From assembly GCA_041659405.1 (NCBI GenBank), contig JBAZYK010000015.1, forward strand, positions 1 through 26,854: a DNA stretch of 26,854 bases, given 5' to 3'. The position numbers and the translations under genes are program-made. A model generated the notes under the pieces. It saw only the letters and a list, made by a program, of their open reading frames with translations. It searched no databases and had not been told where the DNA came from. The stretch comes from Candidatus Altimarinota bacterium. Lineage in GTDB: Bacteria; Patescibacteriota; Gracilibacteria; UBA1369. Below, piece by piece: positions 3,897 through 24,072 of this stretch; position 1 is the stretch's first letter, and each line of letters starts with the position of its first letter.

Positions 3897-3916
3897 TCCC
3901 CCATTTTTTTTTGCAT

Positions 3917-4426
3917 ATGAAAAGACCAAAGCTGGTAAGGATTGATTTGGACAAGCCAATTACAGAGCTTGTTAGTCAAAGTGACCACAAAATATTAGGA
4001 ATCTGGGCAGCTGACTGTGCCGAGCGGGTCTTACACTACTTTGAAGAAAAATATCCGGAAGATAATCGTCCCCGAAAAGCTATAGAAGCACTCCGGACGT
4101 GGATTAAGACCGGCCTGTTTAAAATGGCCGATGTGCGAAAGAGTTCACTTTCGGCTCATGCGGCAGCCCGTGAAGTGAAAGAAAATGATGATGCCGCCCG
4201 ATCCGCCGCCCGCAGTGCAGGACAAGCAATGGCGACTGCGCATGTTCCCACTCATTCCATTGGCGCTGCTGTTTATGCAGCCACCGCCGTCCGCGACGCA
4301 ACCGGCTCCATTGATGACACTACCAGGGAACGAGATTGGCAATACCAGCACTTGCTCAATCTGAACAAAACATTTGGCACAACCCATCCCGCAAAGAAAA
4401 CGCTCTGGAGGTTCCGGCAAAAATAA
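3917..4426 (+). CDS. hypothetical protein, Ala-rich helical (possibly immunity-protein-like)
   Basis: ATG 3917 is preferred over TTG 3911. It is visibly more GC-rich than its neighbours. WAADCAERVLHYFE...AARSAARSAGQAMATAHVPTHSIGAAVYAATAV recalls Imm5-like putative immunity proteins, but this is from memory only. Confidence 0.55.
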   Translation: MKRPKLVRIDLDKPITELVSQSDHKILGIWAADCAERVLHYFEEKYPEDNRPRKAIEALRTWIKTGLFKMADVRKSSLSAHAAAREVKENDDAARSAARSAGQAMATAHVPTHSIGAAVYAATAVRDATGSIDDTTRERDWQYQHLLNLNKTFGTTHPAKKTLWRFRQK

Positions 4427-7074: not shown

Positions 7075-7455
7075 CTAAGCCCAAAAACCCTGGTACGTCA
7101 GCCATAATCCAAGCAGAACCACAATTACCAAAGCTACTGGATACCAAGGTGTTAAGCTGACTTTTTTGATAATTTTCTTGGAAAAATCACTGAAAAACAA
7201 TCTGACAACCCCCTTTAGCAATGCAACCCAGCCTGTTAACGTAATAATTACACGCCAATCCGAGACCCAAAGATTATGGCTTGCCACCATCAAAATACCA
7301 ACTATCAAAGAAATTGAACCGGTTATCAGCAAAAAAGTATCATCCTGCGCCTCATGAATAATTAGCTTATAAGCTTTTTTATTTACCAACAAAGCAAGTC
7401 CAACCACGACAAAATAAGCCCCCAGAACTTTTGCCAGGAAAAGAGAAGTTTCCAT
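7075..7455 (-). CDS. membrane protein, hypothetical
   Basis: The ORF track extends to 7821, but that 5' part overlaps the opposite-strand HycG-like gene. I start at the internal METSLFLAKVLGAYFVVVGLALL (ATG 7455-7453), giving 126 aa and about 4 TM. Confidence 0.5.
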   Translation of the reverse strand: METSLFLAKVLGAYFVVVGLALLVNKKAYKLIIHEAQDDTFLLITGSISLIVGILMVASHNLWVSDWRVIITLTGWVALLKGVVRLFFSDFSKKIIKKVSLTPWYPVALVIVVLLGLWLTYQGFWA

Positions 7456-7585
7456 AGGAAGGAAATTAAAAAAATATTTCAACCGACAGAATTGTACATC
7501 CAAAAAGCAATTTTTCAAAAAATACATTGCTTTTTTCCCGCGAAAGTCTAAAAATGAGTCGGATTCTTTTTCTGCCAATGCTGAT

Positions 7586-8143
7586 ATGACTTTCTTAAAA
7601 CTGCTAGATCGACTTTTCTTCGGACCAAAAGTAACCGAGGATAAAAGCAAATTCCTCAGCGGAAAAGATATAAAAGCAAAATTCGCCCCACCAACGGAAG
7701 AAATCGGCAAAGAACTAAAAACAATCATCGCTAACCTATATGGCGGGCGATCTTTACGAATCCGCGCAGTAGATGGTGGTTCAAGTAATGGCGAAGAAAT
7801 CGAATTAACCGCTCTTGGCAATGCTTATTACGACATTGACCGCTTTGGACTTTCTTTTGTGGCATCTCCAAGACACGCCGACATGCTTTTTGTAACCGGA
7901 CCTGTCACCAGAAACCTGGAACGGGCCGTGCGCACCACTTACGAAGCCGCACCGCAGCCATGCATCGTTGTAGCCCTGGGTGATGGCGCCTGCACCGGCG
8001 GCATTTGGAAAAATTCCTATGCCGTGGTTGGCCCTGTCGAAAAAGTCATTCCCGTTCATTACAAAATCTATGGAGACCCACCAACTCCAACTCAAATTTT
8101 AAGCGGCCTTTTAAATATCTTAAAAAACAAAACTCAAAAATGA
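7586..8143 (+). CDS. NuoB/HycG-like hydrogenase small-subunit homolog lacking Fe-S ligands
   Basis: DRFGLSFVASPRHADMLFVTGPVTRNLERAV...VVALGDGACTGGIW...GDPPTP aligns with the HycG/NuoB family. The expected Cys positions read AVDGGSSNGEE, GDGACTGG and YGDPP, so only one Cys is retained. Confidence 0.85.
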   Translation: MTFLKLLDRLFFGPKVTEDKSKFLSGKDIKAKFAPPTEEIGKELKTIIANLYGGRSLRIRAVDGGSSNGEEIELTALGNAYYDIDRFGLSFVASPRHADMLFVTGPVTRNLERAVRTTYEAAPQPCIVVALGDGACTGGIWKNSYAVVGPVEKVIPVHYKIYGDPPTPTQILSGLLNILKNKTQK

Positions 8144-10152
8144 ATAATGAAGTTTTAATCACAACCGGTATTTTGGTGAGCCTGATCGGAACATTCGCAG
8201 GTGGAATTATTTCCTTATTTGGAAAAAACAATTTCATCCAGAGAACCGCGCAAATAGTTACAGCACTTGCACTTTTGCTTGGAACGGCTTCCTCGGGCGC
8301 TTTTTTAATGATGAACCTTCAACCGCTAACAATCTTTAATCTTGGAACTTTATTTCCCGGACAGTTTGTAATCGATCACCTTTCGGCAATCTTTTTTTTG
8401 CTTGTTAATGCAGTTGGATTTTTGGCGACAATCTACGGCACAAGATACGTTTTGAACGAAGCGCACCTTTATAATATTTCTTACGTCCAGTTTCTAACGT
8501 CATTTTTCCTTTTGGGAATGCAAATGGTTGTGCTTTCCACCAATGCCGTTTCCTTTCTTTTTTCCTGGGAAGTAATGTCACTCAGCAGCTTTTTATTGGT
8601 AATAGCCGACTTTAAACACTCTTCCATTAGAGCGGCAATTTTTTATTTGATCATGACTCATCTTGGAGCAGGAGCGCTTTTAGCCGGATTTCTTTTACTT
8701 TCCGGCGGTTCGTTAAGCCTTAACTTCAGCCAAATTGCTCAACTGGTTCCACAAATGTCTTCAATCACCGCCATCAGCGCATTTCTATTATTTTTCTTTG
8801 GATTTGGATCTAAATCGGGACTTTTCCCTTTTCATGGCTGGTTACCGGAAGCGCATCCACAAGCCCCAAGTCACATTTCAGCTTTAATGTCTGGAATTAT
8901 GCTAAAGATTGCCGTTTATGGATTTTTGCGGGTTATACTTTTCATGCTGCCGGTTATGCCAATCGAAATCGGCATGACAGTTACCGTAATCGGCTTATTT
9001 TCCGCAGTTTTTGGAGTTCTTTACGCTACAATTGAAACGGACATAAAACGAATTTTGGCTTTCAGCAGCATTGAAAACCTTGGTCTGATTTTTACGATGA
9101 TCGGAATTTATCTGATCGCCAAAAATTTACAAATGGATCTCCTGGCTCAAATCAGCCTTATAGTAATCTTGTTCCAGTCGATCTGCCACGCTTTTTTCAA
9201 GTCAGGTTTATTCATGAGCGCCGGCGTAATCGCCCAAACTTTCCACACCCGCAACATTGAAAAAATGGGCGGCATGGCCAAAAACATGAAACTGTTCTCT
9301 TTCGCGGTTTTGCTGCTTGCCTTAACCGCTGCGGCGTTACCACCTTCCGGTGCCTTCATTGGTGAATGGATTATTTTACAAACAATTATTGGAACCCTGG
9401 CTATTGCACCTTTAGGCTTTAAAATTATTTTGTTACTGACCTTTGTTGTGTTTGGTTTTGTTGCAGGAATGGCCGTTTTTGCCATGGTCAGATTTTTTGG
9501 AATCGCCTTTTTAGCAAAATCAAGAACAACCAACGCCCACGTTGAAGCCAATTTAAAACATGACCCGCAGGCGGAACTGCTTATACCAATCGTCATTTTG
9601 GCCTTTGTAGTTTTTGGACTGGGGTCGATTGCCCAGTTTATTACAAAAATAATCGGCAATGGCATTCTTACCGAATCTTATCAAAAAACATTTGATACAA
9701 GCTTCAACCTCTTTGGCACATCTTTCAATCCTTCAATGCTGTTGGTAATTATCGTCGCGGCAATTTTGGCGGCTTACCTCTTCCGCTATTTCACCTCAAA
9801 TCGCAAAAACGAACGCCAATATCACAGTTGGGATTGCGGCCAACCGATTGATGCTTCCATGGAATATACCGGCACAGCATTTGCTTCACCTCTGCGCTTT
9901 TTCTTTAACATGATCCTTCGCACAAATAAAAAAGTGGAATCTAAACCTGTGCTAGCCAGCAATCCCTGGATTACCAAAAAAAGCATCAGTATCGAAACTT
10001 ATCCAATTTGGGATCAATATTTTTATGAACCAATCGTCAAGCTGGTAGCTTTCATTTCGGCTAAAATCCGCAAACTTCAAAGCGGAATTATCCAGTTCTA
10101 CATCGCGTTAATTCTTATTACTCTCGTCATAACCGCAATCGCCACTCTATGA
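8140..10152 (+). CDS. HyfB/HycC/NuoL-like antiporter-type membrane subunit
   Basis: Start moved to ATG 8140 (ATGA overlap with the upstream stop) instead of 8005. Motifs FSWEVMSLSSF and FHGWLPEAHPQAPSHISALMSGIMLKIAVYG are typical of NuoL/M/N-type subunits. 670 aa, many TM. Confidence 0.85.
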   Translation: MNNEVLITTGILVSLIGTFAGGIISLFGKNNFIQRTAQIVTALALLLGTASSGAFLMMNLQPLTIFNLGTLFPGQFVIDHLSAIFFLLVNAVGFLATIYGTRYVLNEAHLYNISYVQFLTSFFLLGMQMVVLSTNAVSFLFSWEVMSLSSFLLVIADFKHSSIRAAIFYLIMTHLGAGALLAGFLLLSGGSLSLNFSQIAQLVPQMSSITAISAFLLFFFGFGSKSGLFPFHGWLPEAHPQAPSHISALMSGIMLKIAVYGFLRVILFMLPVMPIEIGMTVTVIGLFSAVFGVLYATIETDIKRILAFSSIENLGLIFTMIGIYLIAKNLQMDLLAQISLIVILFQSICHAFFKSGLFMSAGVIAQTFHTRNIEKMGGMAKNMKLFSFAVLLLALTAAALPPSGAFIGEWIILQTIIGTLAIAPLGFKIILLLTFVVFGFVAGMAVFAMVRFFGIAFLAKSRTTNAHVEANLKHDPQAELLIPIVILAFVVFGLGSIAQFITKIIGNGILTESYQKTFDTSFNLFGTSFNPSMLLVIIVAAILAAYLFRYFTSNRKNERQYHSWDCGQPIDASMEYTGTAFASPLRFFFNMILRTNKKVESKPVLASNPWITKKSISIETYPIWDQYFYEPIVKLVAFISAKIRKLQSGIIQFYIALILITLVITAIATL

Positions 10153-11096
10153 ATCTTCTCGTCATTTTTTATCAATTTTTGATCGTTGCTTTAGTCGCTC
10201 CTTTTGCAGCGGGACTGGTTAAATTTTTTAAAGCCAGACTCCAGGGACGCCGCGGCGCATCGCCATTTTTGCCTTACTTCACAATCCTGACTCTGCTCAA
10301 AAAACAAATGGTTATTTCGGAAAGTACCTCCTGGGTTTTCCGCATTTCTCCATTCATCGTTTTTGGAACATCTTTATTCATGGCACTGGTTTTACCTTTA
10401 ATGACAGCCAATCTCGCCCTGGTAACCTTCAGCAATTTCATCATCGTTGCCGGAATTTTAATTCTTGGCGCGATTTTTCTGGTTTTTGGCGGACTCGAAT
10501 CTGCTTCCGCCTTTGGTGGAATGGGAGCAAGCCGTGAAATGACCATCACTGCTTTAATCGAACCAACGGTTTTGCTGATTTTTGGGACTCTGGCACTCAA
10601 CAGCGGAAGCACGGAAATAAGCAACATGGTGCTTCATCTCGATTTCCTTAAAAATCCTTTTATCATCCCCACAATCCTAGCTTTAGCATTGGTCGCCCTT
10701 GCCGAAAACGCCCGCTATCCGGTGGATAATCCGGCTACACATTTGGAACTTACAATGGTTCACGAAGCCATGGTTTTGGAATATTCCGGTCCATATTTGG
10801 CGTTACTTGAATATGCTTCATTTCTTAAACTGACCTTCTTTTCGTTACTGGTCGCAAATTTCATCTGGCCAATCGGCTTAATTACAGGCTCAATCACAAA
10901 CAACTTTGCTTTATCTCTTGTCATTGCTCCACTCATCCTGCTGGCAAAAATAATTGTGATGATGTTTTTATTGGCACTTTTAGAATCCACAATCGTCAAA
11001 ATGCGTTTTTATCGCATTCAGGAATATGCAACTGTAGCCTTTTTCCTGGCTCTTGGCGGAATTATTTTGACTCTTGTTAATATCACCATCCTATGA
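10149..11096 (+). CDS. HycD/HyfC/NuoH-like membrane subunit
   Basis: 315 aa, polytopic. LQGRRGASPFLPYFTILTLLKK, GGMGASREMTI, and ENARYPVDNPATHLELTMVHEAMVLEYSG (compare the NuoH/HycD P.D..E.E.EL..G motif). ATGA overlap with the upstream gene. Confidence 0.85.
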   Translation: MNLLVIFYQFLIVALVAPFAAGLVKFFKARLQGRRGASPFLPYFTILTLLKKQMVISESTSWVFRISPFIVFGTSLFMALVLPLMTANLALVTFSNFIIVAGILILGAIFLVFGGLESASAFGGMGASREMTITALIEPTVLLIFGTLALNSGSTEISNMVLHLDFLKNPFIIPTILALALVALAENARYPVDNPATHLELTMVHEAMVLEYSGPYLALLEYASFLKLTFFSLLVANFIWPIGLITGSITNNFALSLVIAPLILLAKIIVMMFLLALLESTIVKMRFYRIQEYATVAFFLALGGIILTLVNITIL

Positions 11097-11773
11097 TCTC
11101 GACCCAACTTCTTGCCGATTTTTTTGCAGGCGGACTATTACTTGCCACTTTCATGATGATCGGCAAAATCCGCTTACTGCAGATGCTCCGCTATTTTGCG
11201 ATTGCCTCCTTTTTTCTGGCTGCTCTTGGCGGAATTATCGCCTTTTCACGCGGAGAACCGGAACTGTATATCGGCTCGATCGCCACAATTCTTTTCAAGG
11301 TAATTTTTATTCCCGCCTTCATTTCTTATACAGCCAAAAAAATCCCGTCTTCCTACCAGTTAAAAATGTATATAAAACCCGCTACCACCTATTTTCTTTT
11401 CGCACTGATTTTAATTATAAGTGCGATCATTGTCAGAAATTTACCTTTAACTTTTAGCAGCAGTGACGGCATTTTCCAGGATGTGTTTTTCTTCAGAAGC
11501 CTGCTTTTTATTTCCGTTGCGCTGATTTTATCGGGATTTTTACTCATCATCATCAGAAAAGATTTATTTTCACAGGTACTTGGTTTAATGACAATCGAAA
11601 ACGGTATCGCCGCTTTTGGGCTTGTAGCCTTAAACAACGTACCCCTATTCCTGGAAATGGGCGTCTTTTTTGTGATTATGGTTAGCACGATTATCCTGGC
11701 TCTCCTCACGGAAAAAGTCCACGAAGTGTACTCAAGCGGAGACACCGAAAATTTAAATGAATTAATTGACTGA
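11093..11773 (+). CDS. HyfE-like (NuoK-related) membrane subunit
   Basis: 226 aa. The C-terminal part LGLMTIENGIAAFGLVALNNVPLFLEMGVFFVIMVSTIIL matches the NuoK/HyfE pattern with two membrane Glu. Overlaps the upstream stop. Confidence 0.75.
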   Translation: MISTQLLADFFAGGLLLATFMMIGKIRLLQMLRYFAIASFFLAALGGIIAFSRGEPELYIGSIATILFKVIFIPAFISYTAKKIPSSYQLKMYIKPATTYFLFALILIISAIIVRNLPLTFSSSDGIFQDVFFFRSLLFISVALILSGFLLIIIRKDLFSQVLGLMTIENGIAAFGLVALNNVPLFLEMGVFFVIMVSTIILALLTEKVHEVYSSGDTENLNELID

Positions 11774-11780
11774 TCACACT

Positions 11781-13262
11781 ATGCCTATCCTAATTTTCGT
11801 CATCTTCACGTTAACTGCCATCTGTGCTTTTATCCCAAAGCAGGCTAAAAATGTTTTCAACCTGGTTTTGGGCATGGGCATTGTCTCTTCCGCAGTGGCT
11901 TTTTACACAATGATTCCCCCGCTATTTTCAAATCAAATTTTGGAACTGGGAGGAATGTTAAGAATCGATAAATTTTCCGCGCTGATTGGAGTTTTGATTA
12001 CAACTCTCTACTTTTTTGCGGTTTTAATCAGCCATCGCTACATTTCGGAAGAGTATCGCGAGGGAATTTTGAATTTATTTAAAGTGCGCCTTTATTATTT
12101 GCTGCTGCCATTATTTGCCCTAGCCATGTTAACCGTAATCATGGCCGACAACCTGGGATTATTGTGGCTGGCTCTGGAAACAACCACTTTAGTTACAACT
12201 CCATTGGTCGCAATTTACAAAAAAGACGGCTCGCTGGAGGCAGCTTGGAAATACATGATTTTATGTTCCCTTGGAATCAGTCTGGGACTTTTAGGAGTGC
12301 TTCTACTAAGCTACGCAGGCGTACAAAGTGGTCTTAGCGGCCTGGATTCAATGTCGATTAAAATGTTGATCACCAATGCTCCAAAAATGATTCCGGAAGT
12401 TATGAAATGGGCTTTTATTTTCTGTTTCATTGGACTTGGAACCAAAGTCGGCTTTTTCCCTTTACACACCTGGCTTCCGGACGCTCACGGCAGAACTCCG
12501 GCTCCTATTTCGGCAATGCTCTCCGGAATTCTTTTAAACGTCGCCCTTTACGCTTTATTAAGAGTTAAAGGAATCACCGATATCGCTTTAGGATCTGATC
12601 AATGGACCAATAATTTATTTTTGATTTTTGGGGTGATGTCCATAGTTGCCAGCGCCTTTTTTCTTTTCATCCAACGCAATTACAAAAGAATGTTGGCTTA
12701 TTCCAGCATGGAACACATGGGCTTAATTGCTGTAGCCATCGGCCTTGGCCCGCTTGGACTTGTTCCGGCCACCATGCACATGGTTGCCCACACACTTTCC
12801 AAATCATTACTTTTCTTTGGCTCCGGCGAAATTTTATTACACACCAAAACCGCCAAAATCTACAAAATAAAAAGCCTGATCAACCAATTACCAAAAACGG
12901 TTATTTTGTTTACCATCGGCATGATTTCCCTGCTGGCCTTCCCTCCATTTGCGACTTTTTCCAGCGAAGTAATGATTCTATCCGCGGCCATCACCAAAGG
13001 ACAAATCATCCCTTTCTTTTTGATCATAATTTCTTTGAGTATTATTTGTATCAGCTTTTTTAAACACGCTTTTGACATGTTTTCCCACAGTGAAGATCAA
13101 ACGGAAGACAGCGCTAAAATCGCTCAAGCAAAAGAAAAGTTCAATGTGACTCATCTGGTAATGATTATCCAAATTGTTCTTTTGATAGCGGGCGGAATTT
13201 TTATGTTTACCAATACCGGATTCGATTTCTTCTCAAGTATCGCTGACTCTATTTATCACTAA
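11781..13262 (+). CDS. HyfF/HyfD/NuoN(M)-like antiporter-type membrane subunit
   Basis: LALETTTLVTTPLVAIY and FPLHTWLPDAHGRTPAPISAMLSGILLNVALYA are typical. ATG 11781 chosen. TTG 11766 (8-nt overlap with the upstream gene) is an alternative start. Confidence 0.85.
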   Translation: MPILIFVIFTLTAICAFIPKQAKNVFNLVLGMGIVSSAVAFYTMIPPLFSNQILELGGMLRIDKFSALIGVLITTLYFFAVLISHRYISEEYREGILNLFKVRLYYLLLPLFALAMLTVIMADNLGLLWLALETTTLVTTPLVAIYKKDGSLEAAWKYMILCSLGISLGLLGVLLLSYAGVQSGLSGLDSMSIKMLITNAPKMIPEVMKWAFIFCFIGLGTKVGFFPLHTWLPDAHGRTPAPISAMLSGILLNVALYALLRVKGITDIALGSDQWTNNLFLIFGVMSIVASAFFLFIQRNYKRMLAYSSMEHMGLIAVAIGLGPLGLVPATMHMVAHTLSKSLLFFGSGEILLHTKTAKIYKIKSLINQLPKTVILFTIGMISLLAFPPFATFSSEVMILSAAITKGQIIPFFLIIISLSIICISFFKHAFDMFSHSEDQTEDSAKIAQAKEKFNVTHLVMIIQIVLLIAGGIFMFTNTGFDFFSSIADSIYH

Positions 13263-13276
13263 TTTTTGGCCGCACC

Positions 13277-14908
13277 ATGGAAAAGAAAACTACAATCAGC
13301 AAAGAAAACACGCAGCGACAAGCCACAAATCAGACTTCAAACCTTGAGGTCATCAAGACCGACGCCGAACATTTTAATAACATTGTTTTCAACCTTTTGG
13401 AAAAAAATTATCGTCTTGCGCACATGTTTGCCACTGACGATATCGCTTCAAACAAAACTTTTGGAGTGCACGTTTTGCTCACACCGGAAGCCAAAAACGA
13501 ATGGATTCAAGTTTCAATTGCCTTGCCGGAAAAAAATCCCAAATACGAATCTCTGACCAAAACTTTGCCTTCCACCAACTGGTACGAAAGATACATCATG
13601 GATATGTTTGGAATTGTTGCGGAAGGTCATCCCGACCACAGAAGGCTTGTTCATCACGAAAACATGCCACTCAATACTCATCCGTTACGCAAAGATTTTG
13701 CCTGGAACACGGTTTTGAAAAAAGAAAATCATCCTCATCCAATGCATCACGTTGAGGGAAATGGCATTTATGAAATTCCGGTTGGACCGATTCACGCCGG
13801 CATTATTGAACCGGGACATTTTCGTTTTAATGTAGCCGGAGAAAGAATTATCACGCTGGAAGGAAAATTATTTTTCACCCACAAGGGCGCGGAAAAAATC
13901 ATGGAAGGGAAAAAACTTGAAGAAGCTTTACCTTTTGTTGAAAGAATTTCCACAGATTCAGCCGCAGGGCATGCATTAGCCTACTGTCAGACAGTTGAAA
14001 AAATTACCAACACCAAAATAAGTGAAAAAGCCACACTTTTAAGAACTTTGATTGCCGAATTGGAGCGCATCACCATGCACATTCATGACCTTGCAAACAT
14101 TGCCGGCATGGGAACAGGTTACAGCGTAATGGCTGCACATGGCTTTAGAATCAAAGAAAAGCTGGTTCGTTTAAGTGAAGAACTTTTTGGTAATCGTTTT
14201 TGGCGAGGATTTATTGTACCGGGCGGAGTCGACAAAGATCTGGAAAAATCAGAACTAAAACTTATTTCCGAAACGACAAAAGAGGTTGTGGAAGAAATGC
14301 AGGATCTGCTTAAAATGGGCCTTAATTCAGATGGTTTATGCGAAAGACTTGTTAGTAGTGGCGTCTTAAAACCAGAAGCGGCCAAGGCTTATGGCGCAGT
14401 TGGAATTGCCGCCAGAGCTTCGGGGATCAACATGGACACCCGCGTTGATCACCCTTATGCAGCTTATCCAAAGCTTAATTTCACAGTTGCCGTAAAACAG
14501 GGTAATGGCGTTTTTGCCCGTTACATGGTCCGCGTTGAAGAATTGGAAGCAAGTTACGCAATGGTTCAGGAACTTCTTAAATTCTTGGGACAATCAAAAG
14601 AAGTTAAAGGAAAAGCTCACGTCAAAAGTGAAATCAATTTCATAGCTGCACAAAGCGCAAACAAAGCAAATCAAAAAAACGCAGCCGCTTCGGCAAACGA
14701 AGCCATTTCCGCAGTAGAAGGCTGGCGCGGCGAAATCATTTATTTCATCCGTTTGGACGAAAAAGGCCTGATTGATCGCATTTCCGTCCGTGATCCATCA
14801 TTCTGCAACTGGCCACTTTTTGGAGAAATCGGCCCAGGCAACATCGTCCCAGACTTCCCTCTTTGCAACAAATCGCTCGACCTAAGTTATTCCGGAACGG
14901 ATTTGTAA
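13277..14908 (+). CDS. HycE/HyfG-like fused NuoC-NuoD homolog (hydrogenase large-subunit-like) lacking NiFe ligands
   Basis: The N-terminal NuoC-like part includes WYERYIMDMFGIVAEGHPD. The large-subunit part includes EIPVGPIHAGIIEPGHFRF and VEGWRGE. The N-terminal metal motif reads ERISTDSAAGH (Ser codons 13949-51 and 13958-60 where R.CG.C..H has Cys). The C-terminal motif reads DLSYSGTDL (Ser 14885-87 and Gly 14894-96 where DPC..C has Cys). Confidence 0.85.
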   Translation: MEKKTTISKENTQRQATNQTSNLEVIKTDAEHFNNIVFNLLEKNYRLAHMFATDDIASNKTFGVHVLLTPEAKNEWIQVSIALPEKNPKYESLTKTLPSTNWYERYIMDMFGIVAEGHPDHRRLVHHENMPLNTHPLRKDFAWNTVLKKENHPHPMHHVEGNGIYEIPVGPIHAGIIEPGHFRFNVAGERIITLEGKLFFTHKGAEKIMEGKKLEEALPFVERISTDSAAGHALAYCQTVEKITNTKISEKATLLRTLIAELERITMHIHDLANIAGMGTGYSVMAAHGFRIKEKLVRLSEELFGNRFWRGFIVPGGVDKDLEKSELKLISETTKEVVEEMQDLLKMGLNSDGLCERLVSSGVLKPEAAKAYGAVGIAARASGINMDTRVDHPYAAYPKLNFTVAVKQGNGVFARYMVRVEELEASYAMVQELLKFLGQSKEVKGKAHVKSEINFIAAQSANKANQKNAAASANEAISAVEGWRGEIIYFIRLDEKGLIDRISVRDPSFCNWPLFGEIGPGNIVPDFPLCNKSLDLSYSGTDL

Positions 14909-15011
14909 GCCAGGAACAATCTTCAGTGTTCATTATCCAAACCCTAGGCAAAGTCGTTGATTTTCAGCCTAAAAGGTATACATTTGTGGCAAATAGCCAT
15001 ACGTATTTTTT

Positions 15012-16721
15012 ATGGAAAAATCCTGCGCCCAATGTTCCACAAAGTTCGAAATCACTGAACAGGACTTAAAATTCTACGACACCATCTCACCTGTTTTCGC
15101 TGGGAAAAAATATCCCATTTCCCCACCGACTTTCTGCCCGGATTGCCGTCTTCAGCGCAGAATGAGCTGGCGCAACGAAAGATTTTTATACACCAGAAAA
15201 TGCGATAAATGTAAAAAAAATATCGTATCAGTGCACTCACAAAACAAGCCCTTTCCGGTTTATTGTAATAAATGCTGGTGGAGTGACGATTGGGACGTTC
15301 ATCAATATGGAAAATCTTTCGATTTTTCCCGCCCTTTTTTTGATCAACTCAGGGAACTCATGGACAAAGTTCCGCAACTGGCCATTCAAAACGACAATGG
15401 CACCGGAAGCGTAAATTCCGAGTTTTGCCAGGACGCCTCACACCTAAAAAACTGCTATCTTGTGGTTGGAACCTGGTACACCGAAGACAGTTTTTATTGC
15501 AGCATCAACTCTTCACACAACCGCAACATCTGTGACTGCATCAACATTTCCAAGTCCGAACTTTGTTATGAATCCATCGATTCACAGGGGCTTTATAATT
15601 GTGCCTTCGTGCAGAACTCCGAAAACTGCAGTGACTGTTTTTTTGGCTTTGATCTGAAAGGTTGCAAAAATTGTTTTGGCTGCATCGGCCTGCGTCAAAA
15701 ACAGTTTTACATTTTTAATAAACCCTACAGTGAAGAAGAATATAAAGAAAAAATCGCCACATATAAACTTGATTCATCTGAATCATTAGCCAAATTTAAG
15801 ACAGAATATTTTCAATGGATCATAAAATATCCACGCAAAAATATGAACCTGCAAAATTGCGAAAATAGCGAGGGAAACGATTTATTAAACTGCAAAAACA
15901 CCTACGGCTTTAGTCTTTTAAATTCCGAAAATTGCAAGTATTGCCATCAGGGCGATGAAAATAAATTCAGTTACGACATTTCCAACAGCGGCAGGCCGAA
16001 TTGGTGCTACGAAGGAATCACTCCGGACAATTCCTACATGAATCATTTTTCCTGGTTCTCATGGGCAAATAAATACCTGCTCTACTGCATAAACTGCCAC
16101 AGCAGTGAATATCTTTTCGGATGCGTATCGCTGCATCGAGGCAAATATTGCATCTTAAACAAACAATATACCAAAGAAGAGTACGAAGCGCTTGTGCCAA
16201 AAATCATCGAACACATGAAGAAAACCAGAGAATGGTCGGAATTTCCCGATACCAAATTTTCTTTTTTTGGCTACAACGAAACCGTCAGCAACGAATATTT
16301 CCCGCTAACCCAGGCAGAAGTCGAAAAAAGAGGCTGGCCATGGCAACCCAAAGCCCTTCGAGAATATGAACCTCAAACCTGCATAATTCCCGATTCCATC
16401 AAAGAAATCCCTCAAACTATCACCAAGGAAATATTAAGTTGCACAGACTGCCAAAAAAATTACAAAATCATTCCTCAAGAGTTGGTCTTCTATCAAAAAA
16501 TGGGGCTTCCCATACCCAAAAAATGCTCTAACTGCCGGCATCTTGATCGCCTCAAACGTCGCAATCCCTACAAACTCTGGCAAAGATCCTGCGCCAAATG
16601 CGCCAAACCAATCAAAACCAGCTACGCCCCAAATCGTCCGGCCACCGCCGCAGCGGGGTCCCCCGCTAAGCGGGGGAAAATCGTTTATTGTGAAGACTGT
16701 TATTTAAAAGAAATTTACTAG
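15012..16721 (+). CDS. cysteine-rich protein with terminal zinc-ribbon-like modules and an internally duplicated core
   Basis: 569 aa. The N-terminus has CAQC..CPDC..CDKC..CNKC and the C-terminus has CTDC..CSNC..CAKC..CEDC, and both share the pattern F/Y.I....L.FY......P...C..CR...R...RN. The core contains two related halves ending CFGCIGLRQKQFYIFNKPYSEEEYKE and LFGCVSLHRGKYCILNKQYTKEEYEA. Confidence 0.75.
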   Translation: MEKSCAQCSTKFEITEQDLKFYDTISPVFAGKKYPISPPTFCPDCRLQRRMSWRNERFLYTRKCDKCKKNIVSVHSQNKPFPVYCNKCWWSDDWDVHQYGKSFDFSRPFFDQLRELMDKVPQLAIQNDNGTGSVNSEFCQDASHLKNCYLVVGTWYTEDSFYCSINSSHNRNICDCINISKSELCYESIDSQGLYNCAFVQNSENCSDCFFGFDLKGCKNCFGCIGLRQKQFYIFNKPYSEEEYKEKIATYKLDSSESLAKFKTEYFQWIIKYPRKNMNLQNCENSEGNDLLNCKNTYGFSLLNSENCKYCHQGDENKFSYDISNSGRPNWCYEGITPDNSYMNHFSWFSWANKYLLYCINCHSSEYLFGCVSLHRGKYCILNKQYTKEEYEALVPKIIEHMKKTREWSEFPDTKFSFFGYNETVSNEYFPLTQAEVEKRGWPWQPKALREYEPQTCIIPDSIKEIPQTITKEILSCTDCQKNYKIIPQELVFYQKMGLPIPKKCSNCRHLDRLKRRNPYKLWQRSCAKCAKPIKTSYAPNRPATAAAGSPAKRGKIVYCEDCYLKEIY

Positions 16722-19817: not shown

Positions 19818-20258
19818 ATGATTACAAGAGCAAAAAACTGGGTCGTACAAAACGTTCTTTACATTGCCTGGACAATCGCATTGGTTGGCATGATCGCCAG
19901 CCTAATTTTTAGCGAAGTTATGAATCTTCCGCCATGTAATTTGTGCTGGTATCAAAGAATTTTGCTTTATCCGCTGGTACTAATTTTGCCCATCGGCATC
20001 ATCAAAAAAGATAAACTTCTACACCATTACGTTTTTCCTTTTTCGATTTTGGGCGCAATTGTCGCATTTTATCACACTCTGCTTCAGGCAAATATCATTC
20101 CGGAAAATCTTGCACCATGTTCATTTGGAATTTCCTGCGTAACAAAAACTATCAACTATTTTGGTTTTATTACCATTCCTTTGCTTTCATTCCTTGCCTT
20201 CGTCACTATTGGCGTCTGCATGTTTATTTATAAAAAATTAACTAAATCATCATCATGA
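19818..20258 (+). CDS. disulfide bond formation protein B family (BdbC/DsbB-like)
   Basis: 146 aa, 4 TM. First-loop motif PPCNLCWYQRILLYP. A second Cys pair (CSFGISC) lies in the later loop. Confidence 0.8.
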   Translation: MITRAKNWVVQNVLYIAWTIALVGMIASLIFSEVMNLPPCNLCWYQRILLYPLVLILPIGIIKKDKLLHHYVFPFSILGAIVAFYHTLLQANIIPENLAPCSFGISCVTKTINYFGFITIPLLSFLAFVTIGVCMFIYKKLTKSSS

Positions 20259-20914
20259 AAATGAAAAAAGAAATCAAAAACCTTATCATCATCGCAATTG
20301 TCGGAATTGTTGTAATTGGCGGAATATTCGCCATGCTTAAAACTCCAACAAATTCACAAACCGTTGATCAAGCCCTATTGATCCATGAAGACAGCTATGA
20401 ACTACTCGAAGGAAAACCAATTAACGCAAAAGTAACGGTTGTTGAGTTTGGCGATTTTGAGTGTCCGGCTTGCGGATTTTCCCATGGCATCTTTAAGCAA
20501 ATTTTACTGGCTTATCCTGATCAAGTTAATCTTGTTTTTAGACATTATCCTCTTCCACAACACAAAACTGCTTTGATAGCGGCAGAGGCGGCGGAAGCAG
20601 CCGGTGAACAAGGCAAATTCTGGCAAATGTATGATTTACTCTATGAAAATCAGGAAAAATGGAGTGCGAAAGCTGAGGCTTTAGATATCTTCGCAGAATA
20701 TGCCAAGCAACTCAACCTGGATGTTGAAAAATTCAAAAAAGACATTCAAGATGAAAAATATAAAGAAAAAATCAAGCGTGATCAGGCCGATGGCGATAAA
20801 TTGATACTAACCGGTACCCCAACAATCTACATCAATGGCCAAAAATATACCGGCGGTTTAAGTTTCCAAGGCATTAAAAATGCAATTGAAGCTCAGCTCA
20901 ACCCAAAACCATAA
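20255..20914 (+). CDS. DsbA/BdbD-like thioredoxin-fold thiol:disulfide oxidoreductase
   Basis: N-terminal TM anchor. Active site FGDFECPACGFSH (CPAC). LTGTPTIYINGQ supplies the cis-Pro loop. ATGA overlap with the upstream DsbB-like gene. Confidence 0.8.
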   Translation: MKMKKEIKNLIIIAIVGIVVIGGIFAMLKTPTNSQTVDQALLIHEDSYELLEGKPINAKVTVVEFGDFECPACGFSHGIFKQILLAYPDQVNLVFRHYPLPQHKTALIAAEAAEAAGEQGKFWQMYDLLYENQEKWSAKAEALDIFAEYAKQLNLDVEKFKKDIQDEKYKEKIKRDQADGDKLILTGTPTIYINGQKYTGGLSFQGIKNAIEAQLNPKP

Positions 20915-20961: not shown

Positions 20962-21921
20962 ATGAAAGCCTGCACCCTTAAATCCGCTTTCCAAAGCGAT
21001 TTTAAAGTTTCCATCATTGGCTGTGGAAATGTAGGAGCCACAACAGCTTACGCAATGTTGATGGACGGCAGCCCCACCGAACTTGTTTTGATTGATTACA
21101 ATAAAGATAAAGCCGAAGGTTTGCTTTTGGATTTTGAGCATTCGCTTTCATTTTTGCCTTATACCAAAATCATTGCGAGCAACGATTATGCCGCTTGCAA
21201 AGGATCACATTTGATTGTTATAACCGCAGGAGCAAAACAACAAGAAGGCGAAACTCGTCTACAATTAATCGACAAAAATCGCGCAATTTTTAAAGAGATG
21301 ATTCCGGCATTGGCAAAAATTGCCCCGGAAAGTATTTTAGTAATCGTCACCAATCCTGTTGATGTCTTAACTTACGAAGCACTGCAGCTTTCCGGCTTTC
21401 CGGAAAATCGTGTTTTTGGAACCGGCACAATGCTGGATACCGCCCGCCTGCGCTTTCATATTGGCGAAAAGCTCTGCCTTAACGCAAAAAGCGTTGAAGC
21501 GTACGTTTTAGGTGAACATGGCGACACTTCTTTTCCGGTTTTCAGTTCTGCTAATGTTGCCGGAAAACCACTTAATGACTTTGAAGGATTCACCAATAAA
21601 GTCGCCGAAGAATGTTATCAGGAAACCAAAAATGCCGCTTACAGAATTATTCATGATATGGGCTACACCTGTTATTCCATCGCGATAGTTGTACGTGAAA
21701 TAATGCGTAACGTCTTTGATCATTCACGCGTGGTTGTGCCACTTTCGGTTAAACTACATGATTACTATGGCGAAAATGACGTGGCGTTAAGCGTTCCCTG
21801 CGTCTTGGACAGCAATGGCATATCTGATGTTATAAACATTCCTCTTAACAAAATCGAACAAAAGAATTTGGCAAAATCCGCTGAAACTTTGCGTCAATAT
21901 CTGAAAAAAAGTCATGTCTAA
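20962..21921 (+). CDS. ldh: L-lactate dehydrogenase
   Basis: [18 protein letters not shown]...[33 protein letters not shown] (Gln where MDHs carry Arg), [19 protein letters not shown] and [11 protein letters not shown] all fit LDH. Confidence 0.85.
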
Positions 21922-22822
21922 GCGATTACCGACAAAATCTTCCAGCCAAAATGTGCAAGACAAAAGCTTATTCGTAAGCGATATTTTTAGTTCCATTCAA
22001 GGCGAAGGAAAGAATCTTGGCAAACCTTCGCTATTTTTAAGACTCGGGATCTGCAACCTGCAATGCACCTGGTGCGACACGCCATACACCTGGAAAAAAG
22101 GCCAAACCGATTACAAACAACAAACAATTGAATCGATTTTTAAAAAATTATTAAACCTAAAAAAAGAATCCAATAACGAAAGAGTTCGCAGCTTAAAACC
22201 ACGCACATCTCTGGCTAAGCAGCCCTTTTTGCCACCCCACGGCATTCAAAATTTAGTTATCACCGGCGGAGAGCCATTGCTTCAACAAACATCGCTCACT
22301 CCCCTTCTTCAAGAAATTTTTCGATCAAAAGAATTTAATCAAAAAGAATTCAAAAAAACAAAAACGTCCAAAAACATCACAGTCGAATTCGAAACAAATG
22401 GCAGCATTCCGCTTCTTCCTGCGTTTAAAAAAGCTTTTAAAAAACAATTAGAGAATGGAACGATTTCATTTAATATTTCGCCAAAGCTTAAAGACAGCGG
22501 GAATAAGCCTTATAAATTGCAACTCTATCCAAACTCAATTCTAAAATTTGTTTATGTGGATAAAAATAGTGAAAAACTGATTCTGGATTTTCTAAAAAAA
22601 CACCAAGTCGAAATTGCAAAAAACTCCAAACAAAGCCGGGGCGCGCTCCAAAAACAGCATCCTCTCGCCAAAAATCCGCCAGTTTATATTATGGCCGAAG
22701 GCACAACCATCAAAGAAATGGAAAAGAAATATTCCGCTATCCTGAAATTCTGCATGGAAAATGGCTTTCAATTTACGCCAAGATGGCATATTTATCTTTT
22801 TGGTAACAAACGCGCAACTTAG
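21914..22822 (+). CDS. queE: 7-carboxy-7-deazaguanine synthase (radical SAM) QueE, with insertions
   Basis: [37 protein letters not shown] (C.3C.2C-type QueE motif), then [10 protein letters not shown]. Lys-rich insertions lie between the conserved blocks. 8-nt overlap with ldh. Confidence 0.8.
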
Positions 22823-22898
22823 CCAAATGCGCAACTTAAAAGCGCACATCCAACAAACACTTTCAAACAGTCGCCTGAAAAACTAAAACGAACCTCTT

Positions 22899-23552
22899 AT
22901 GAAAATCCTCTTTATCCTTTCCGGCGGGCTTGATTCCACCACAGCGCTCTATCTTTTGCGTCAAAAACATGAAGTTGTGGAAACGGTGACCTTTGATTAT
23001 GGCCAGCGCCACGTCAAAGAAATCAAATCAGCGCAAACAATCAGCAAACTACTCAAAATTCCACACACAATCATCAACATTAAAAATCTGAATCAATTTT
23101 TGCAGGGCAGCTCTTTGACCAGCAAAAACATTAAAACTCCGCATGGGCATTACCAAAAATCCAACATGAAAAAGACCATCGTGCCAAACCGTAATGCCAT
23201 CATGATTAACATTGCAGCCGGATATGCAATTTCCAAAAAAATTCACGGACTTGGAGTGGGCGTTCATGCCGGCGACCATTATATTTATCCCGATTGCCGA
23301 CCGGAATTTATTGATTCACAAGCCAAAACTTTAAGTCTGGCCAACGAGTGCGATTTCAAAATTTTCACACCATTTATCAATCAAAATAAAGCAGCCATCG
23401 TCAAAAAAGGGCTTGCTCTGGGCGTTCCTTTTGAACTAACCTGGACCTGCTACGAAGGCGGCAAAAAGCCCTGCAACAAATGCGGCAGCTGCACGGAACG
23501 CCTGGAAGCCTTCAAGATCAACAAATTAACAGATCCGCTTTCAACAAATTAA
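22899..23552 (+). CDS. queC: 7-cyano-7-deazaguanine synthase QueC
   Basis: [18 protein letters not shown] (PP-loop), [16 protein letters not shown], and the C-terminal Zn motif [19 protein letters not shown]. Confidence 0.9.
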
Positions 23553-23571
23553 CACACTTAACTTTCACATC

Positions 23572-24072
23572 ATGCCTTCAAAAAAATCCAACCAGAAAAT
23601 GTCTTTCAAGCATCTTGGCCATTCAACAGCTAAAAACGATTTTAACTTCACCCAACCCGAACCAAAAGTTTTGGAAAAGTTTGAAAATCAGCATCCGGAC
23701 AGTCTTTATGTCGTGAACCTTTTGTGCAACGAATTCACATCGCTCTGCCCAATTACCGGCCAGCCCGACTGGGCGACCATCACAATTCGTTATGTGCCAA
23801 ACAAACTTTGCGTGGAAAGCAAAAGTCTAAAACTTTATTTATTCAGTTTCAGAAATCACGGTGAATTTCATGAAGATGTCATTAATCGCATGACTAAGGA
23901 CTTATTCGCTCTGATGAATCCGCATTATCTGCAAATTTACGGAAAATTTCACGCCCGCGGCGGCATTGCCATTCACCCTTTTGTGGAAAAATGGAACAAA
24001 ATAAATCCGCAAGCCAAAGCCGAAATTCGCGAACTGCTAAAAAACAATCCCCAACTGGAAGCGCAATTTTAA
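23572..24072 (+). CDS. queF: NADPH-dependent 7-cyano-7-deazaguanine reductase QueF (unimodular type)
   Basis: [22 protein letters not shown] and [20 protein letters not shown] are QueF signature blocks. An alternative start is ATG 23599. Confidence 0.9.

Follow-up and report, generated by a model that had tools for sequence, protein, structure and literature searches.

An Ehr-class operon in Candidatus Altimarinota predicted to encode a six-subunit complex without redox cofactors

Organisation and class of the operon

The operon lies on the forward strand of a 26.8-kb contig from a Candidatus Altimarinota bacterium (the window, which here means the whole contig) and consists of six intact, mostly overlapping genes at positions 7586-14908. 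The first, ehrS (7586..8143, +), encodes a NuoB/HycG/MbhJ-like small subunit of 185 aa, identified by Pfam PF01058 (E = 6e-24), PDB alignments to 6cfw_J and 7z0s_G, and column conservation over 120 homologues. It is followed by four genes for membrane subunits, each further assessed by comparative columns. These are ehrA (8140..10152, +), a HyfB/NuoL-like antiporter-like subunit of 670 aa (PF00361; NCBIfam hydrogenase 4 subunit B, E = 1e-146); ehrB (10149..11096, +), a HycD/NuoH-like subunit of 315 aa (Pfam PF00146; 7z0s_D, E = 1.6e-29); ehrC (11093..11773, +), a HyfE-like subunit of 226 aa with a NuoK-like C-terminal half (NCBIfam hydrogenase 4 membrane subunit, E = 5e-19; Pfam PF00420); and ehrD (11781..13262, +), a HyfF/NuoN-like antiporter-like subunit of 493 aa (NCBIfam hydrogenase 4 subunit F, E = 3e-100; 6cfw_H alignment). 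The last gene, ehrL (13277..14908, +), encodes a fused NuoC-NuoD/HycE-like large subunit of 543 aa (Pfam PF00329 and PF00346; 7z0s_E alignment; motif survey of 120 homologues).

The Pfam, NCBIfam and PDB matches bear out the gene content and coordinates of the original prediction, which described a six-subunit operon related to group-4 hydrogenases and complex I. Its statement that most junctions are translationally coupled also holds, as ATGA overlaps are present at the S/A, A/B and B/C junctions, with the ATG of ehrA at 8140 overlapping the ehrS stop codon. Just 3′ of ehrL, a consensus scan found a terminator-like hairpin with a T-tract (14985..15011, +). This is probably the 3′ end of the operon, although the evidence is weak because such sites are no more frequent in the region than chance would give.

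By sequence, the operon is of the Ehr (hydrogenase-related) class, within a clade found mainly in candidate-phyla-radiation (CPR) bacteria. Ehr complexes share with it six subunits, a group 4-homologous large subunit without CxxC NiFe motifs, S-G-D at the first motif and LSYSG(T/N)D at the C-terminus (PMC7304191). The closest solved or curated relatives of every subunit (HyfB, HycD, HyfE, HyfF, HycE and HycG) come from Hyf/formate hydrogenlyase-2 and FHL-1 (group 4a, PDB 7Z0S). Unlike these enzymes, the complex has no NiFe site, proximal cluster, HycF/HyfH or HycB/HyfA, and no formate dehydrogenase or hyp genes lie near its operon.

Cofactor-ligand positions in the peripheral subunits

The NiFe ligand columns of EhrL, read from the alignment to the solved structure 7z0s_E, are occupied by Ser225, Ser228, Ser537 and Gly540, such that all four cysteines are replaced. 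In the structure alignment, RISTDSAAGH pairs with RVCGICGFAH of HycE and DLSYSGTD with DPCYSCTD, while Asp227 and the C-terminal LSYSGTDL are typical of Ehr proteins. Loss of the NiFe cysteines, as originally predicted, is thus confirmed; for the CPR Ehr clade it had already been published (Jaffe 2020, PMC7304191).

The Fe-S ligand columns of EhrS are occupied by Ser67, Glu70, Gly134 (in the column of the third ligand cysteine) and Asp164, and again all four cysteines are replaced. Here GSSNGEEIE pairs with GSCNGCDIE of MbhJ, and YGDPP with PGCPP. Column conservation over 120 homologues shows Glu70, Glu71, Asp133, Gly134 and Cys136 to be invariant or nearly so throughout the clade. Cys136 (in GDGACTGG) lies two positions beyond the column of the canonical ligand, and in many cluster-bearing homologues it accompanies the ligand cysteine; none of the four canonical ligands therefore remains. 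The original prediction, which allowed for one retained cysteine, was right about ligand loss but not about this count, and its concern that cysteines at shifted positions had been misread is answered by the structure alignments, in which the ligand columns themselves are replaced.

A ferredoxin-type subunit is encoded neither in the window nor in 80 related metagenome loci, and CxxCxxCxxxC is not found in any reading frame of the window, nor in those 80 loci, in agreement with the predicted absence of a HycF/HyfH/NuoI-type subunit in or beside the operon. By contrast, a fused or adjacent 2x[4Fe-4S] module accompanies many of the ordinary Ehr complexes that have the Hyf gene order.

Whether cluster loss might be typical of Ehr complexes had been left as a query; it is not, since the four-cysteine set is kept in nearly all (about 50) of the 53 small subunits that we examined from ordinary Ehr complexes. 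Beyond the clade described here, loss is limited to one other clade, again mainly CPR, and a handful of isolated lineages. This division, in which ordinary Ehr complexes retain the small-subunit cluster while our clade and a few others have lost it, is new here. All sequence tests agree with the earlier conclusion that the complex cannot be a redox-driven pump, as it lacks a NiFe site, an N2-type cluster and an electron-input subunit.

Conservation of the membrane arm

EhrA keeps the full set of channel residues, namely Glu144, Lys225, His232, His239, Lys256, Lys354 and Glu409. EhrD keeps Glu133, Lys222, His229, Lys341 and Glu396 (6cfw_H alignment and comparative columns), and its TM8 position is Asn253, which is not a loss because Asn is the commonest residue there across the Hyf/Ehr superfamily. 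Within EhrB, the TM5-6 loop and E-channel are retained through Ser128-Arg129-Glu130, Glu138, Glu186, Arg189, Asp193, Asn194, Thr197, His198, Glu200, His205, Glu206 and Glu211, and EhrC retains Glu169 (TIENG) and Glu188 (FLEMG). The interface-loop residues of the NuoH-, NuoD- and NuoB-like subunits are also all kept in the comparative columns. The predicted retention of membrane-arm hallmarks was therefore upheld, with the clade-specific exceptions Gln41Leu and Lys48Thr in EhrB and Asp194Val in EhrC, the last at an otherwise near-invariant position. Channel and interface-loop residues that the superfamily conserves are thus in place, and the L-shaped machine appears to be preserved, with two antiporter-like proton channels, an E-channel of the NuoH/NuoK type and the loops at the NuoB/NuoD interface. 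The operon is best explained as encoding a complete, functional six-subunit Ehr complex without any redox cofactor. The sequence tests support the earlier suggestion of a machine that translocates ions or changes conformation and is coupled to another process; conservation of the coupling residues makes the other option, a scaffold, unlikely.

Gene neighbourhoods and candidate functions

In relatives, the ehr operon has the genes for the F1Fo ATP synthase on one side and a gene for a carbonic anhydrase on the other. Of 42 informative metagenome loci of the clade, 34 have atpA-G-D-C immediately upstream of ehr in the same orientation (raw counts, ignoring shared ancestry), and in 17 of the 34 the gap to ehr is 2-180 bp. 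Genomes of Peregrinibacteria and Uhrbacteria show this order too. ATP synthase genes are found near 5 of 12 cluster-less versus 0 of 65 cluster-bearing loci, counts that likewise ignore shared ancestry. The c subunits of the neighbouring ATP synthases have no Na+-binding signature.

Exactly one carbonic anhydrase-type gene is present in 17 of 33 well-flanked loci (shared ancestry again ignored), drawn from three unrelated classes. One is a γ-carbonic anhydrase (NCBIfam CcmM/Cam, E = 1e-49 and 3e-40) and another is CsoSCA-like (PDB 2fgy, E = 8e-7; Pfam CsoSCA_cat in five of six members). The third family is, with modest confidence, β-carbonic anhydrase-like: its AF2 model (pLDDT 87) has β-carbonic anhydrases as almost all of its top Foldseek matches and it contains an invariant C, D, H and C, but TM-scores are modest (0.35-0.49) and sequence matches sub-threshold. 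Between two loci of 92-96% identity, from near-identical genomes, the γ-class gene is cleanly swapped for a CsoSCA-like gene at the same position. In Thiobacillus and one other proteobacterium, cluster-bearing Ehr operons likewise have carbonic anhydrase genes and a SulP/STAS transporter beside them. About half of the well-flanked loci have no carbonic anhydrase neighbour, including early-branching and Acidobacteria-like members, and none was found in the second cluster-less clade. In the literature searched, we found no link of Ehr to ATP synthase or carbonic anhydrase, and both associations are new here.

The position of ehr beside ATP synthase and carbonic anhydrase genes suggests a machine for CO2/bicarbonate conversion driven by protons rather than electrons. 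We tentatively favour, at close to an even chance, a redox-independent, proton-coupled module that works with carbonic anhydrase in the manner of DAB or NDH-1/Cup. Protons would cross the membrane through the Ehr complex, and their movement would be coupled to a cytoplasmic carbonic anhydrase, so that CO2/bicarbonate conversion would become directional, as it is in DabAB/MpsAB or in cyanobacterial NDH-1(3/4)-CupA. For its proton gradient the complex would depend on the H+-type F1Fo ATPase, the usual co-located partner of the operon. This mechanism draws on the neighbourhoods of relatives because the window itself, across all 26.8 kb, contains no atp gene and none of the three carbonic anhydrase families; the closest relatives (L167-L169) also have neither neighbour. 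In the studied genome, where the ehr operon stands alone, the complex would use a partner encoded elsewhere. Physical or functional coupling to carbonic anhydrase, and the direction of the reaction, are likewise what we infer from relatives.

The cryo-EM of DAB2 offers a precedent, a vectorial carbonic anhydrase that is driven by the PMF and built on an antiporter subunit of the complex-I type (10.64898/2026.03.13.711513). DabAB/MpsAB is redox-independent and combines such a subunit (PF00361) with a cytoplasmic carbonic anhydrase-fold protein, the working principle proposed here for ehr (Desmarais 2019, 10.1101/476713; 10.64898/2026.03.13.711513). However, the membrane part of DAB is a single subunit, paired with a dedicated DabA (PF10070), whereas ehr encodes a six-subunit L-shaped complex with no DabA, and its candidate partners belong to three classes of ordinary, soluble-type carbonic anhydrase. 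One antiporter-like subunit suffices for a DAB-type mechanism, which leaves the strong conservation of the whole peripheral arm unexplained. A complex-I-type membrane arm is also joined to a carbonic anhydrase-like module in cyanobacterial NDH-1MS/MS′ (NdhD3/F3-CupA/S) and in the γ-carbonic anhydrase domain of plant and protist mitochondrial complex I, but these are driven by electrons passing via Fe-S clusters to quinone, and ehr has no redox chain. A fermentative CPR cell has no obvious need to accumulate bicarbonate, which counts against the proposed mechanism.

It is less probable, though still plausible, that the complex is an Mrp-like secondary cation/proton antiporter unlinked to carbonic anhydrase, which would expel Na+ or K+ or control pH using the proton gradient from an ATP-hydrolysing F1Fo, with the former redox arm only a structural cap or regulator. 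To our knowledge, Mrp, an established redox-independent superfamily member, is the only characterised one with two antiporter-like subunits and a NuoK-like subunit, as in ehr. The complete Lys/Glu sets of EhrA and EhrD, the tight synteny with ATP synthase, and the absence of a carbonic anhydrase neighbour from the window and about half of its relatives all fit such an antiporter. Yet Mrp has no NuoH-, NuoB-, NuoC- or NuoD-like subunits, and MrpB, MrpE, MrpF and MrpG are absent from ehr. Neither the fully kept interface loops nor the peripheral EhrS, the best-conserved protein of the complex (71-96% identity across the clade), would be expected of a passive cap; the recurrent, interchangeable carbonic anhydrase genes would go unexplained, and the c subunits do not point to Na+. 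The same atp and carbonic anhydrase synteny could instead reflect a generator, in which vectorial proton release or uptake by carbonic anhydrase converts a CO2/bicarbonate disequilibrium into a proton gradient and F1Fo-made ATP without a respiratory chain. In its favour, CPR bacteria possess an ATP synthase while no proton pump is known in them, which has been stated as an open problem (PMC6851277, PMC13293708). We regard it as quite unlikely, as no sustained free-energy source was identified, the sequences do not bear on its direction, and DAB and NDH-1/Cup spend energy to hydrate CO2 (10.64898/2026.03.13.711513).

That the complex is still a redox enzyme, with a cluster or metal on the unusual ligands Cys126, Cys136, Glu70 and Asp164, or with electrons from a separately encoded partner (for example ferredoxin or formate dehydrogenase), along the lines suggested for FDH-Ehr complexes, is very improbable. 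Cys126, Cys136 and several acidic residues near the former site are conserved in most clade members, an FDH-Ehr complex has been proposed for Margulisbacteria (PMC6349859), and Ehr proteins are abundant in formate-grown Geobacter (PMC7894505). However, Cys126 is Lys or Arg in two loci (L008 and L009) and Cys136 is Ile in 14 of 80, so no group of three or four ligands is constant across the clade; in the other cluster-less clade, the single cysteine retained is a different one. FDH, ferredoxin, hyp and NuoE/F genes adjoin none of about 90 clade loci, and the Tyr needed to bind a quinone head group is missing. Least credible of all is a decaying hydrogenase remnant or non-functional scaffold, for which the loss of every cofactor ligand might speak. 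The six reading frames are intact with coupled junctions, and the replacement residues are invariant in thousands of homologues. Relaxed selection had been named as a sign of pseudogene decay; instead, decay is excluded by purifying selection on all six genes, with dN/dS of 0.04-0.12 at dS of 0.16-0.32, including 0.10 for ehrS and 0.085 for ehrL.

Cofactor sites and class of the operon

Six ORFs on the plus strand at 7586-14908 encode the complex: S, the NuoB/HycG-like small subunit (7586-8143; PF01058); A, an antiporter-like subunit of HyfB/NuoL type (hydrogenase-4 subunit B model of NCBIfam, E=1e-146); B, which is HycD/NuoH-like (PF00146); C, HyfE-like with a NuoK domain, and D, HyfF/NuoN-like (both recognized by Pfam and NCBIfam); and L, the fused NuoC-NuoD/HycE-like large subunit (PF00329 and PF00346). 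The S/A, A/B and B/C junctions are ATGA overlaps, and a consensus scan, in which promoter and terminator sites were not above chance, places a weak terminator-like hairpin 3′ of L. All six proteins score far under the family cut-offs of the curated NCBIfam models, so none is an ordinary Nuo, Hyf or Mrp protein.

Alignment of the large subunit with HycE (PDB 7z0s_E) shows that the four columns of the NiFe cysteines are occupied by S225, S228, S537 and G540, with RVCGICGFAH of HycE opposite RISTDSAAGH and DPCYSCTD opposite DLSYSGTD. In the small subunit, aligned with MbhJ (PDB 6cfw_J) and HycG (PDB 7z0s_G), the ligand columns hold S67, E70, G134 and D164; GSCNGCDIE is replaced by GSSNGEEIE, the third ligand Cys by G134, and PGCPP by YGDPP. 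C136 lies two residues past the ligand column and, since many homologues have both C136 and the ligand Cys, it is not a leftover ligand. A hidden Fe-S site built from shifted cysteines was considered and rejected, because C126 and C136 are not kept by all members of the clade. All six frames of the window are free of the CxxCxxCxxxC motif. The original prediction had noted these motif changes in both subunits and had concluded that the complex cannot be a redox-driven pump of the known kind; alignment to solved structures confirms the observation, and the replaced ligand columns, together with the missing motif, support the conclusion.

The operon differs from each of the better-known relatives of complex I. 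Group 4 [NiFe]-hydrogenases bind Ni and Fe through two CxxC motifs (L1 and L2) and carry a proximal [4Fe-4S] cluster with four Cys ligands and a 2x[4Fe-4S] subunit of HycF/NuoI type, whereas the large subunit here has neither motif and the window lacks both the cluster ligands and such a subunit. Respiratory complex I (Nuo/NDH-1) has the N2 cluster, a Tyr in NuoD that binds the quinone head group, and NuoA, NuoI and NuoJ; in the window the N2 ligands are missing, the Tyr is absent (RIEY of Escherichia coli NuoCD aligns with RIST), and neither gene calls nor Pfam found NuoA or NuoI. Mrp antiporters comprise MrpA-G and have no NuoH-like or peripheral subunits, whereas the window has NuoH-, NuoB- and NuoCD-like genes, no MrpB, MrpE, MrpF or MrpG gene by Pfam and NCBIfam, and curated Mrp scores far under the cut-offs. 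DAB/MpsAB systems pair DabA (PF10070, beta-CA-like) with a single antiporter-like DabB subunit, and no DabA-type gene is present in the window or in the related loci.

Hydrogenase-related (Ehr) complexes, reportedly described by Coppi in 2005 and Marreiros in 2013, are said to have a group 4 hydrogenase-like large subunit without the NiFe-binding Cys. The large subunit of the window is such a protein, and its S..S/S..G pattern is common to 58 other Ehr large subunits. The gene set is also that of an Ehr operon, with NuoL-, NuoH-, HyfE- and NuoN-like membrane subunits beside a small and a large subunit; this is the six-subunit composition of Geobacter EhrA-D/S/L (PMC7894505), and the S-A-B-C-D-L order is found as well in Rokubacteria, Actinomycetota, Acidobacteriota and candidate phyla radiation (CPR) loci. 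Jaffe et al. (2020; PMC7304191) have described CPR Ehr sequences that are monophyletic and have large subunits without the metal-binding Cys. The clade of the window is monophyletic in our neighbor-joining (NJ) tree and, judged by homologue labels, this tree and the contig label, the operon belongs to the clade of those authors. The Ehr class itself and the loss of the NiFe Cys in CPR Ehr are already known.

Conservation of the complex, and cluster loss in some Ehr clades

A common coupling machine underlies complex I, membrane hydrogenases and Mrp, and there is continuing debate on how its distant proton channels are driven by chemistry at the NuoB/NuoD/NuoH interface. Column-wise comparison of the six proteins with 65-70 Hyf/Ehr homologues, drawn from many phyla, shows that every charged or polar residue conserved in the superfamily is kept. 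These are E144, K225, H232, H239, K256, K354 and E409 in A; E133, K222, H229, K341 and E396 in D; R129, E130, E138, E186, R189, D193, N194, T197, H198, E200, H205 and E206 in B; E169, N170 and E188 in C; and, in L, H173...H181 of the β1-β2 loop along with all Arg, Glu and Asp common to true hydrogenases. The TM8 position of D is Asn (N253), the commonest residue there across the superfamily. Clade-specific departures are few (Q41L and K48T in B, D194V in C, P80A and F141W in S, W130 and N267 in L).

The large subunit has thousands of homologues. Among the best 120, which share ER(I/L/V)SxDxxxxH and a near-invariant C-terminus, KSLNLSYSG(T/N)D(L/M), the named members belong mostly to CPR phyla, and a few carry the labels Vicinamibacterales or Eisenbacteria. 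Small subunits are 71-96% identical across 120 homologues, with E70, E71, D133 and G134 invariant and position 164 either D or N. With the closest relative as reference (dS 0.16-0.32), all six genes have dN/dS values of 0.04-0.12, which refutes decay into a pseudogene cluster, a possibility raised in the original prediction. The operon encodes a complex that has no redox cofactor, is under strong selection and retains its proton-channel and interface residues. This natural cofactor-free version, with all coupling residues kept, sets the conformational machine apart from electron transfer and, having six subunits, is a minimal target for cryo-EM.

A large sub-branch of the clade seems to have a single ORF of ∼530 aa in place of the NuoH-like and HyfE/NuoK-like genes, an apparent fusion in which the B gene is ∼1.6 kb and a separate C gene is missing (loci L096, L103, L107, L109, L114, L118-L120, L125-L130, L133-L138, L141, L144, L145 and L147). 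We know of no fusion of this kind in Hyf or complex I.

It had also been asked whether loss of the small-subunit cluster is typical of Ehr complexes. It is not: CCCC is kept by 87 of the best 150 representatives drawn from 1.84 billion protein clusters, and ∼20 of these 150 have lost the cluster, in several distinct patterns. When one genome was scanned per species, 80 loci were obtained, which fall into four grades. True Hyf-type hydrogenases make up the first, with CCCC in the large subunit, four Cys in the small subunit and a ferredoxin-like module. The second consists of Ehr complexes with the Hyf gene order, four Cys in the small subunit and, often, a fused or adjacent 2x[4Fe-4S] module, and the third of Ehr complexes in S-A-B-C-D-L order with four Cys and no ferredoxin module (for example in Rokubacteria, Actinomycetota, Acidobacteriota and Chloroflexota). 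The fourth grade holds the cluster-less forms in three groups: the clade of the window, in which CPR members are joined by a 68% GC Acidobacteria-like branch; another mainly CPR clade (Daviesbacteria, Saccharibacteria, Falkowbacteria); and one Methanosarcina locus. Because these groups lie apart in the NJ tree, the sequences suggest that the cluster was lost independently two or three times. Judged by its ligand columns, loss of the N2-type cluster is the mark of particular clades and not the Ehr norm, and its repeated loss while the rest stayed as it was is a hint that Ehr complexes in general may function without it.

The 68-71% GC branch of the cofactor-less clade (loci L005/L006, L151, L157, L160, L163 and L164) lies on long contigs labelled Vicinamibacterales (Acidobacteriota), among neighbors that look typically non-CPR (BNR, peptidases, a cbb3-type cytochrome domain), which indicates transfer of the operon across phyla. 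No ATP synthase (atp) or carbonic anhydrase (CA) genes lie near the operon in the loci of this branch.

Neighboring genes and a candidate function

Genomes of Peregrinibacteria and Uhrbacteria carry atpH-A-G-D-C followed directly by the ehr operon. A metagenome scan anchored on the small subunit added 80 loci of the clade, 42 of them with enough upstream DNA; in 34 of these 42, atp genes stand immediately upstream on the same strand, and the gap between atpC and ehrS is 2-180 bp in half of the linked loci (17/34). In the species-representative set, atp genes occur within 10 kb of 5 of the 12 cluster-less loci versus none of the 65 cluster-bearing loci (Fisher p=4e-5, uncorrected for phylogeny). 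The neighboring c subunits read GIGxIG...AFAEAIAIY, and in 11 loci those beside the operon lack the Gln and the Ser/Thr of the Na+-binding signature; on this basis the adjoining ATP synthases are probably H+-coupled. A Na+-coupled enzyme, which would have pointed to Na+/H+ conversion, was rejected on the same residues. In Peregrinibacteria (loci L001/L002, 13737-20103) the operon is followed by carA, pyrB, pyrC and pyrD. carA encodes the small chain of carbamoyl-phosphate synthase, a bicarbonate-using enzyme, and the arrangement could be coincidence or a bicarbonate-consuming pathway placed nearby.

Three further gene families recur beside the operon, at most one of them per locus. A gamma-class CA of 204 aa, directly downstream of ehrL, matches the NCBIfam CcmM N-domain (E=1e-49) and Cam-type carbonic anhydrase (E=3e-40) models. 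Proteins of 340-390 aa resemble CsoSCA, the carboxysome-shell carbonic anhydrase: their profile matches PDB 2fgy_A (E=8e-7), the CxDGR and H...C catalytic motifs align, and five of six members match Pfam CsoSCA_cat. The third family, ∼210 aa and located between atpC and ehrS, has invariant C39, D41, H114 and C117, and its AlphaFold model (pLDDT 87, pTM 0.84) finds PDB fold matches almost only among beta-class carbonic anhydrases (E from 5e-4, probability up to 0.99, TM 0.35-0.49). Pro_CA matches are sub-threshold and limited to a few members, profile-profile comparison with the CsoSCA-like family gave no significant match, and a profile search of PDB sequences found nothing; its putative beta-CA identity thus comes from the fold comparison only.

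One CA-type gene is present in 17 of 33 well-flanked loci, 16 of which also have atp genes; about half of the well-flanked loci have no CA neighbor, and these counts are not phylogenetically independent. The three CA types are interspersed across the tree of the clade. The strongest single result comes from two collinear loci with 92-96% DNA identity, L144 and L145, where the stretch from ehrL to the next shared gene holds a gamma-CA in one and a CsoSCA-like gene in the other, a non-orthologous displacement at a fixed position. That shared gene encodes a membrane-anchored DUF4349 protein (310-405 aa), which lies downstream of ehrL or of the CA gene in nine loci (L007, L103, L109, L114, L126, L127, L141, L144 and L145). 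All three CA families are without signal peptides (N-termini read by eye), so the enzymes would share the membrane side of the peripheral arm. The link may extend beyond the cofactor-less clade. In a Thiobacillus MAG (L081; 2576-4699 and 12280-13338), the neighbors of a cluster-bearing Ehr are a SulP/STAS transporter (directly upstream of ehrA), a CsoSCA-like gene and a LysR regulator, and in another proteobacterium (L082, 3955-4515) a gamma-CA lies directly upstream of a cluster-bearing Ehr.

In the relatives, then, the operon is co-located mostly with an apparently H+-type ATP synthase and in about half of cases with one CA of interchangeable class. We propose that the complex would act as a redox-independent proton-translocating module coupled to a cytoplasmic CA, working like the PMF-driven vectorial carbonic anhydrases DabAB/MpsAB and also resembling NDH-1/CupA, with the ATPase supplying the gradient in cells without a respiratory chain. 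The likeness to DAB/MpsAB concerns the working principle only, and PMF-dependent CO2 hydration by Ehr is putative; vectorial, PMF-dependent CO2 hydration through a complex-I-like subunit is described in a cryo-EM preprint on DAB2 (10.64898/2026.03.13.711513, 2026). The contigs of the window and of its nearest relatives (L167-L169) have neither atp nor CA genes and carry the operon alone, so function there is extrapolated from relatives.

An Mrp-like antiporter would be consistent with the ATP synthase link, and we hold it possible if doubtful, given the extreme conservation of the peripheral arm and the CA genes, with which it is at odds. The synteny is compatible with a generator, in which CO2/bicarbonate chemistry would build the gradient for ATP synthesis; with no energy source identified for it, this seems quite improbable. 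A cryptic redox enzyme is unlikely, there being no constant ligand set and no redox neighbor. The proposed CA-coupled module could be one case of a broader rule, under which Ehr complexes generally would be engines shaped like complex I and driven by the proton gradient, with non-redox chemistry at the former NiFe/quinone interface or at a docked CA, the retained Fe-S cluster would be a structural relic, and the CPR clade would be an end state with atp, CA and ehr as one module; this generalization is speculative, and we rate it as rather unlikely. On this broader reading, the atp-CA-ehr module would either spend ATP to pump inorganic carbon or energize the membrane of cells without a respiratory chain, and no complete L-shaped complex-I-type machine is so far known to dispense, as this one would, with electron transfer altogether.

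To our knowledge, no function has been assigned to Ehr complexes since 2005, and the putative partnership with CA and ATP synthase is a first concrete, testable lead. Such a partnership would add a very large and abundant bacterial group to those with energy-coupled carbonic anhydrases (DAB, MpsAB, NDH-1/Cup). CPR bacteria possess an ATP synthase yet have no respiratory chain, and the makers and users of their proton gradient are an open problem (PMC6851277, PMC13293708) on which the Ehr finding bears. Small-subunit cluster loss and the links of Ehr to ATP synthase and to CA are unmentioned in the literature searched, and Coppi 2005 or Marreiros 2013 may hold an earlier mention; within that literature, full Fe-S cluster loss as a clade trait, the ATP synthase synteny of the clade and the interchangeable CA partners appear to be new. 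Together, the three make Ehr function experimentally approachable.

Annotation and other genes of the contig

The 26,854-bp window is an entire MAG contig, labelled Candidatus Gracilibacteria at NCBI. Of its 25 genes, 5 end in TGA, at ATGA overlaps, and none contains an internal TGA; the standard code (code 11) therefore applies, and the NCBI small-subunit protein (MFA5830115.1) is over-extended, at 190 aa versus 185 aa here. Its extra GIMKF arises where the TGA stop codon (8141-8143) is read as Gly under genetic code 25, a reading that probably stems from the Gracilibacteria label.

No redox partner, hyp, ATP synthase or carbonic anhydrase genes were found anywhere on the contig. Between ehrL and a DUF218 gene lies a Cys-rich ORF of 569 aa (15012-16721, plus strand) with many CxxC pairs, no Fe-S motif and no Pfam family except a faint treble-clef zinc-finger match. 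The closest relative (L167) is otherwise collinear but does not have this ORF, which is therefore a lineage-specific insertion outside the operon; its candidacy as a partner or electron-input subunit was dismissed on these grounds. The start of ehrS is overlapped by a long minus-strand ORF (7075-7821), of which just the C-terminal portion (7075-7449, minus strand) has the look of a genuine small membrane protein, with ∼125 aa, four hydrophobic segments and a start near METSLFLAKVLG; transcription of this gene would be divergent from the operon. Elsewhere on the plus strand are an SLH-domain protein (1849-2211), an Imm5-like immunity protein (3911-4426; PF21805, E=7e-43), a DsbB-DsbA pair (19818-20914), and a queuosine-precursor cluster (radical-SAM gene, QueC and QueF) beside L-lactate dehydrogenase (21914-24072).
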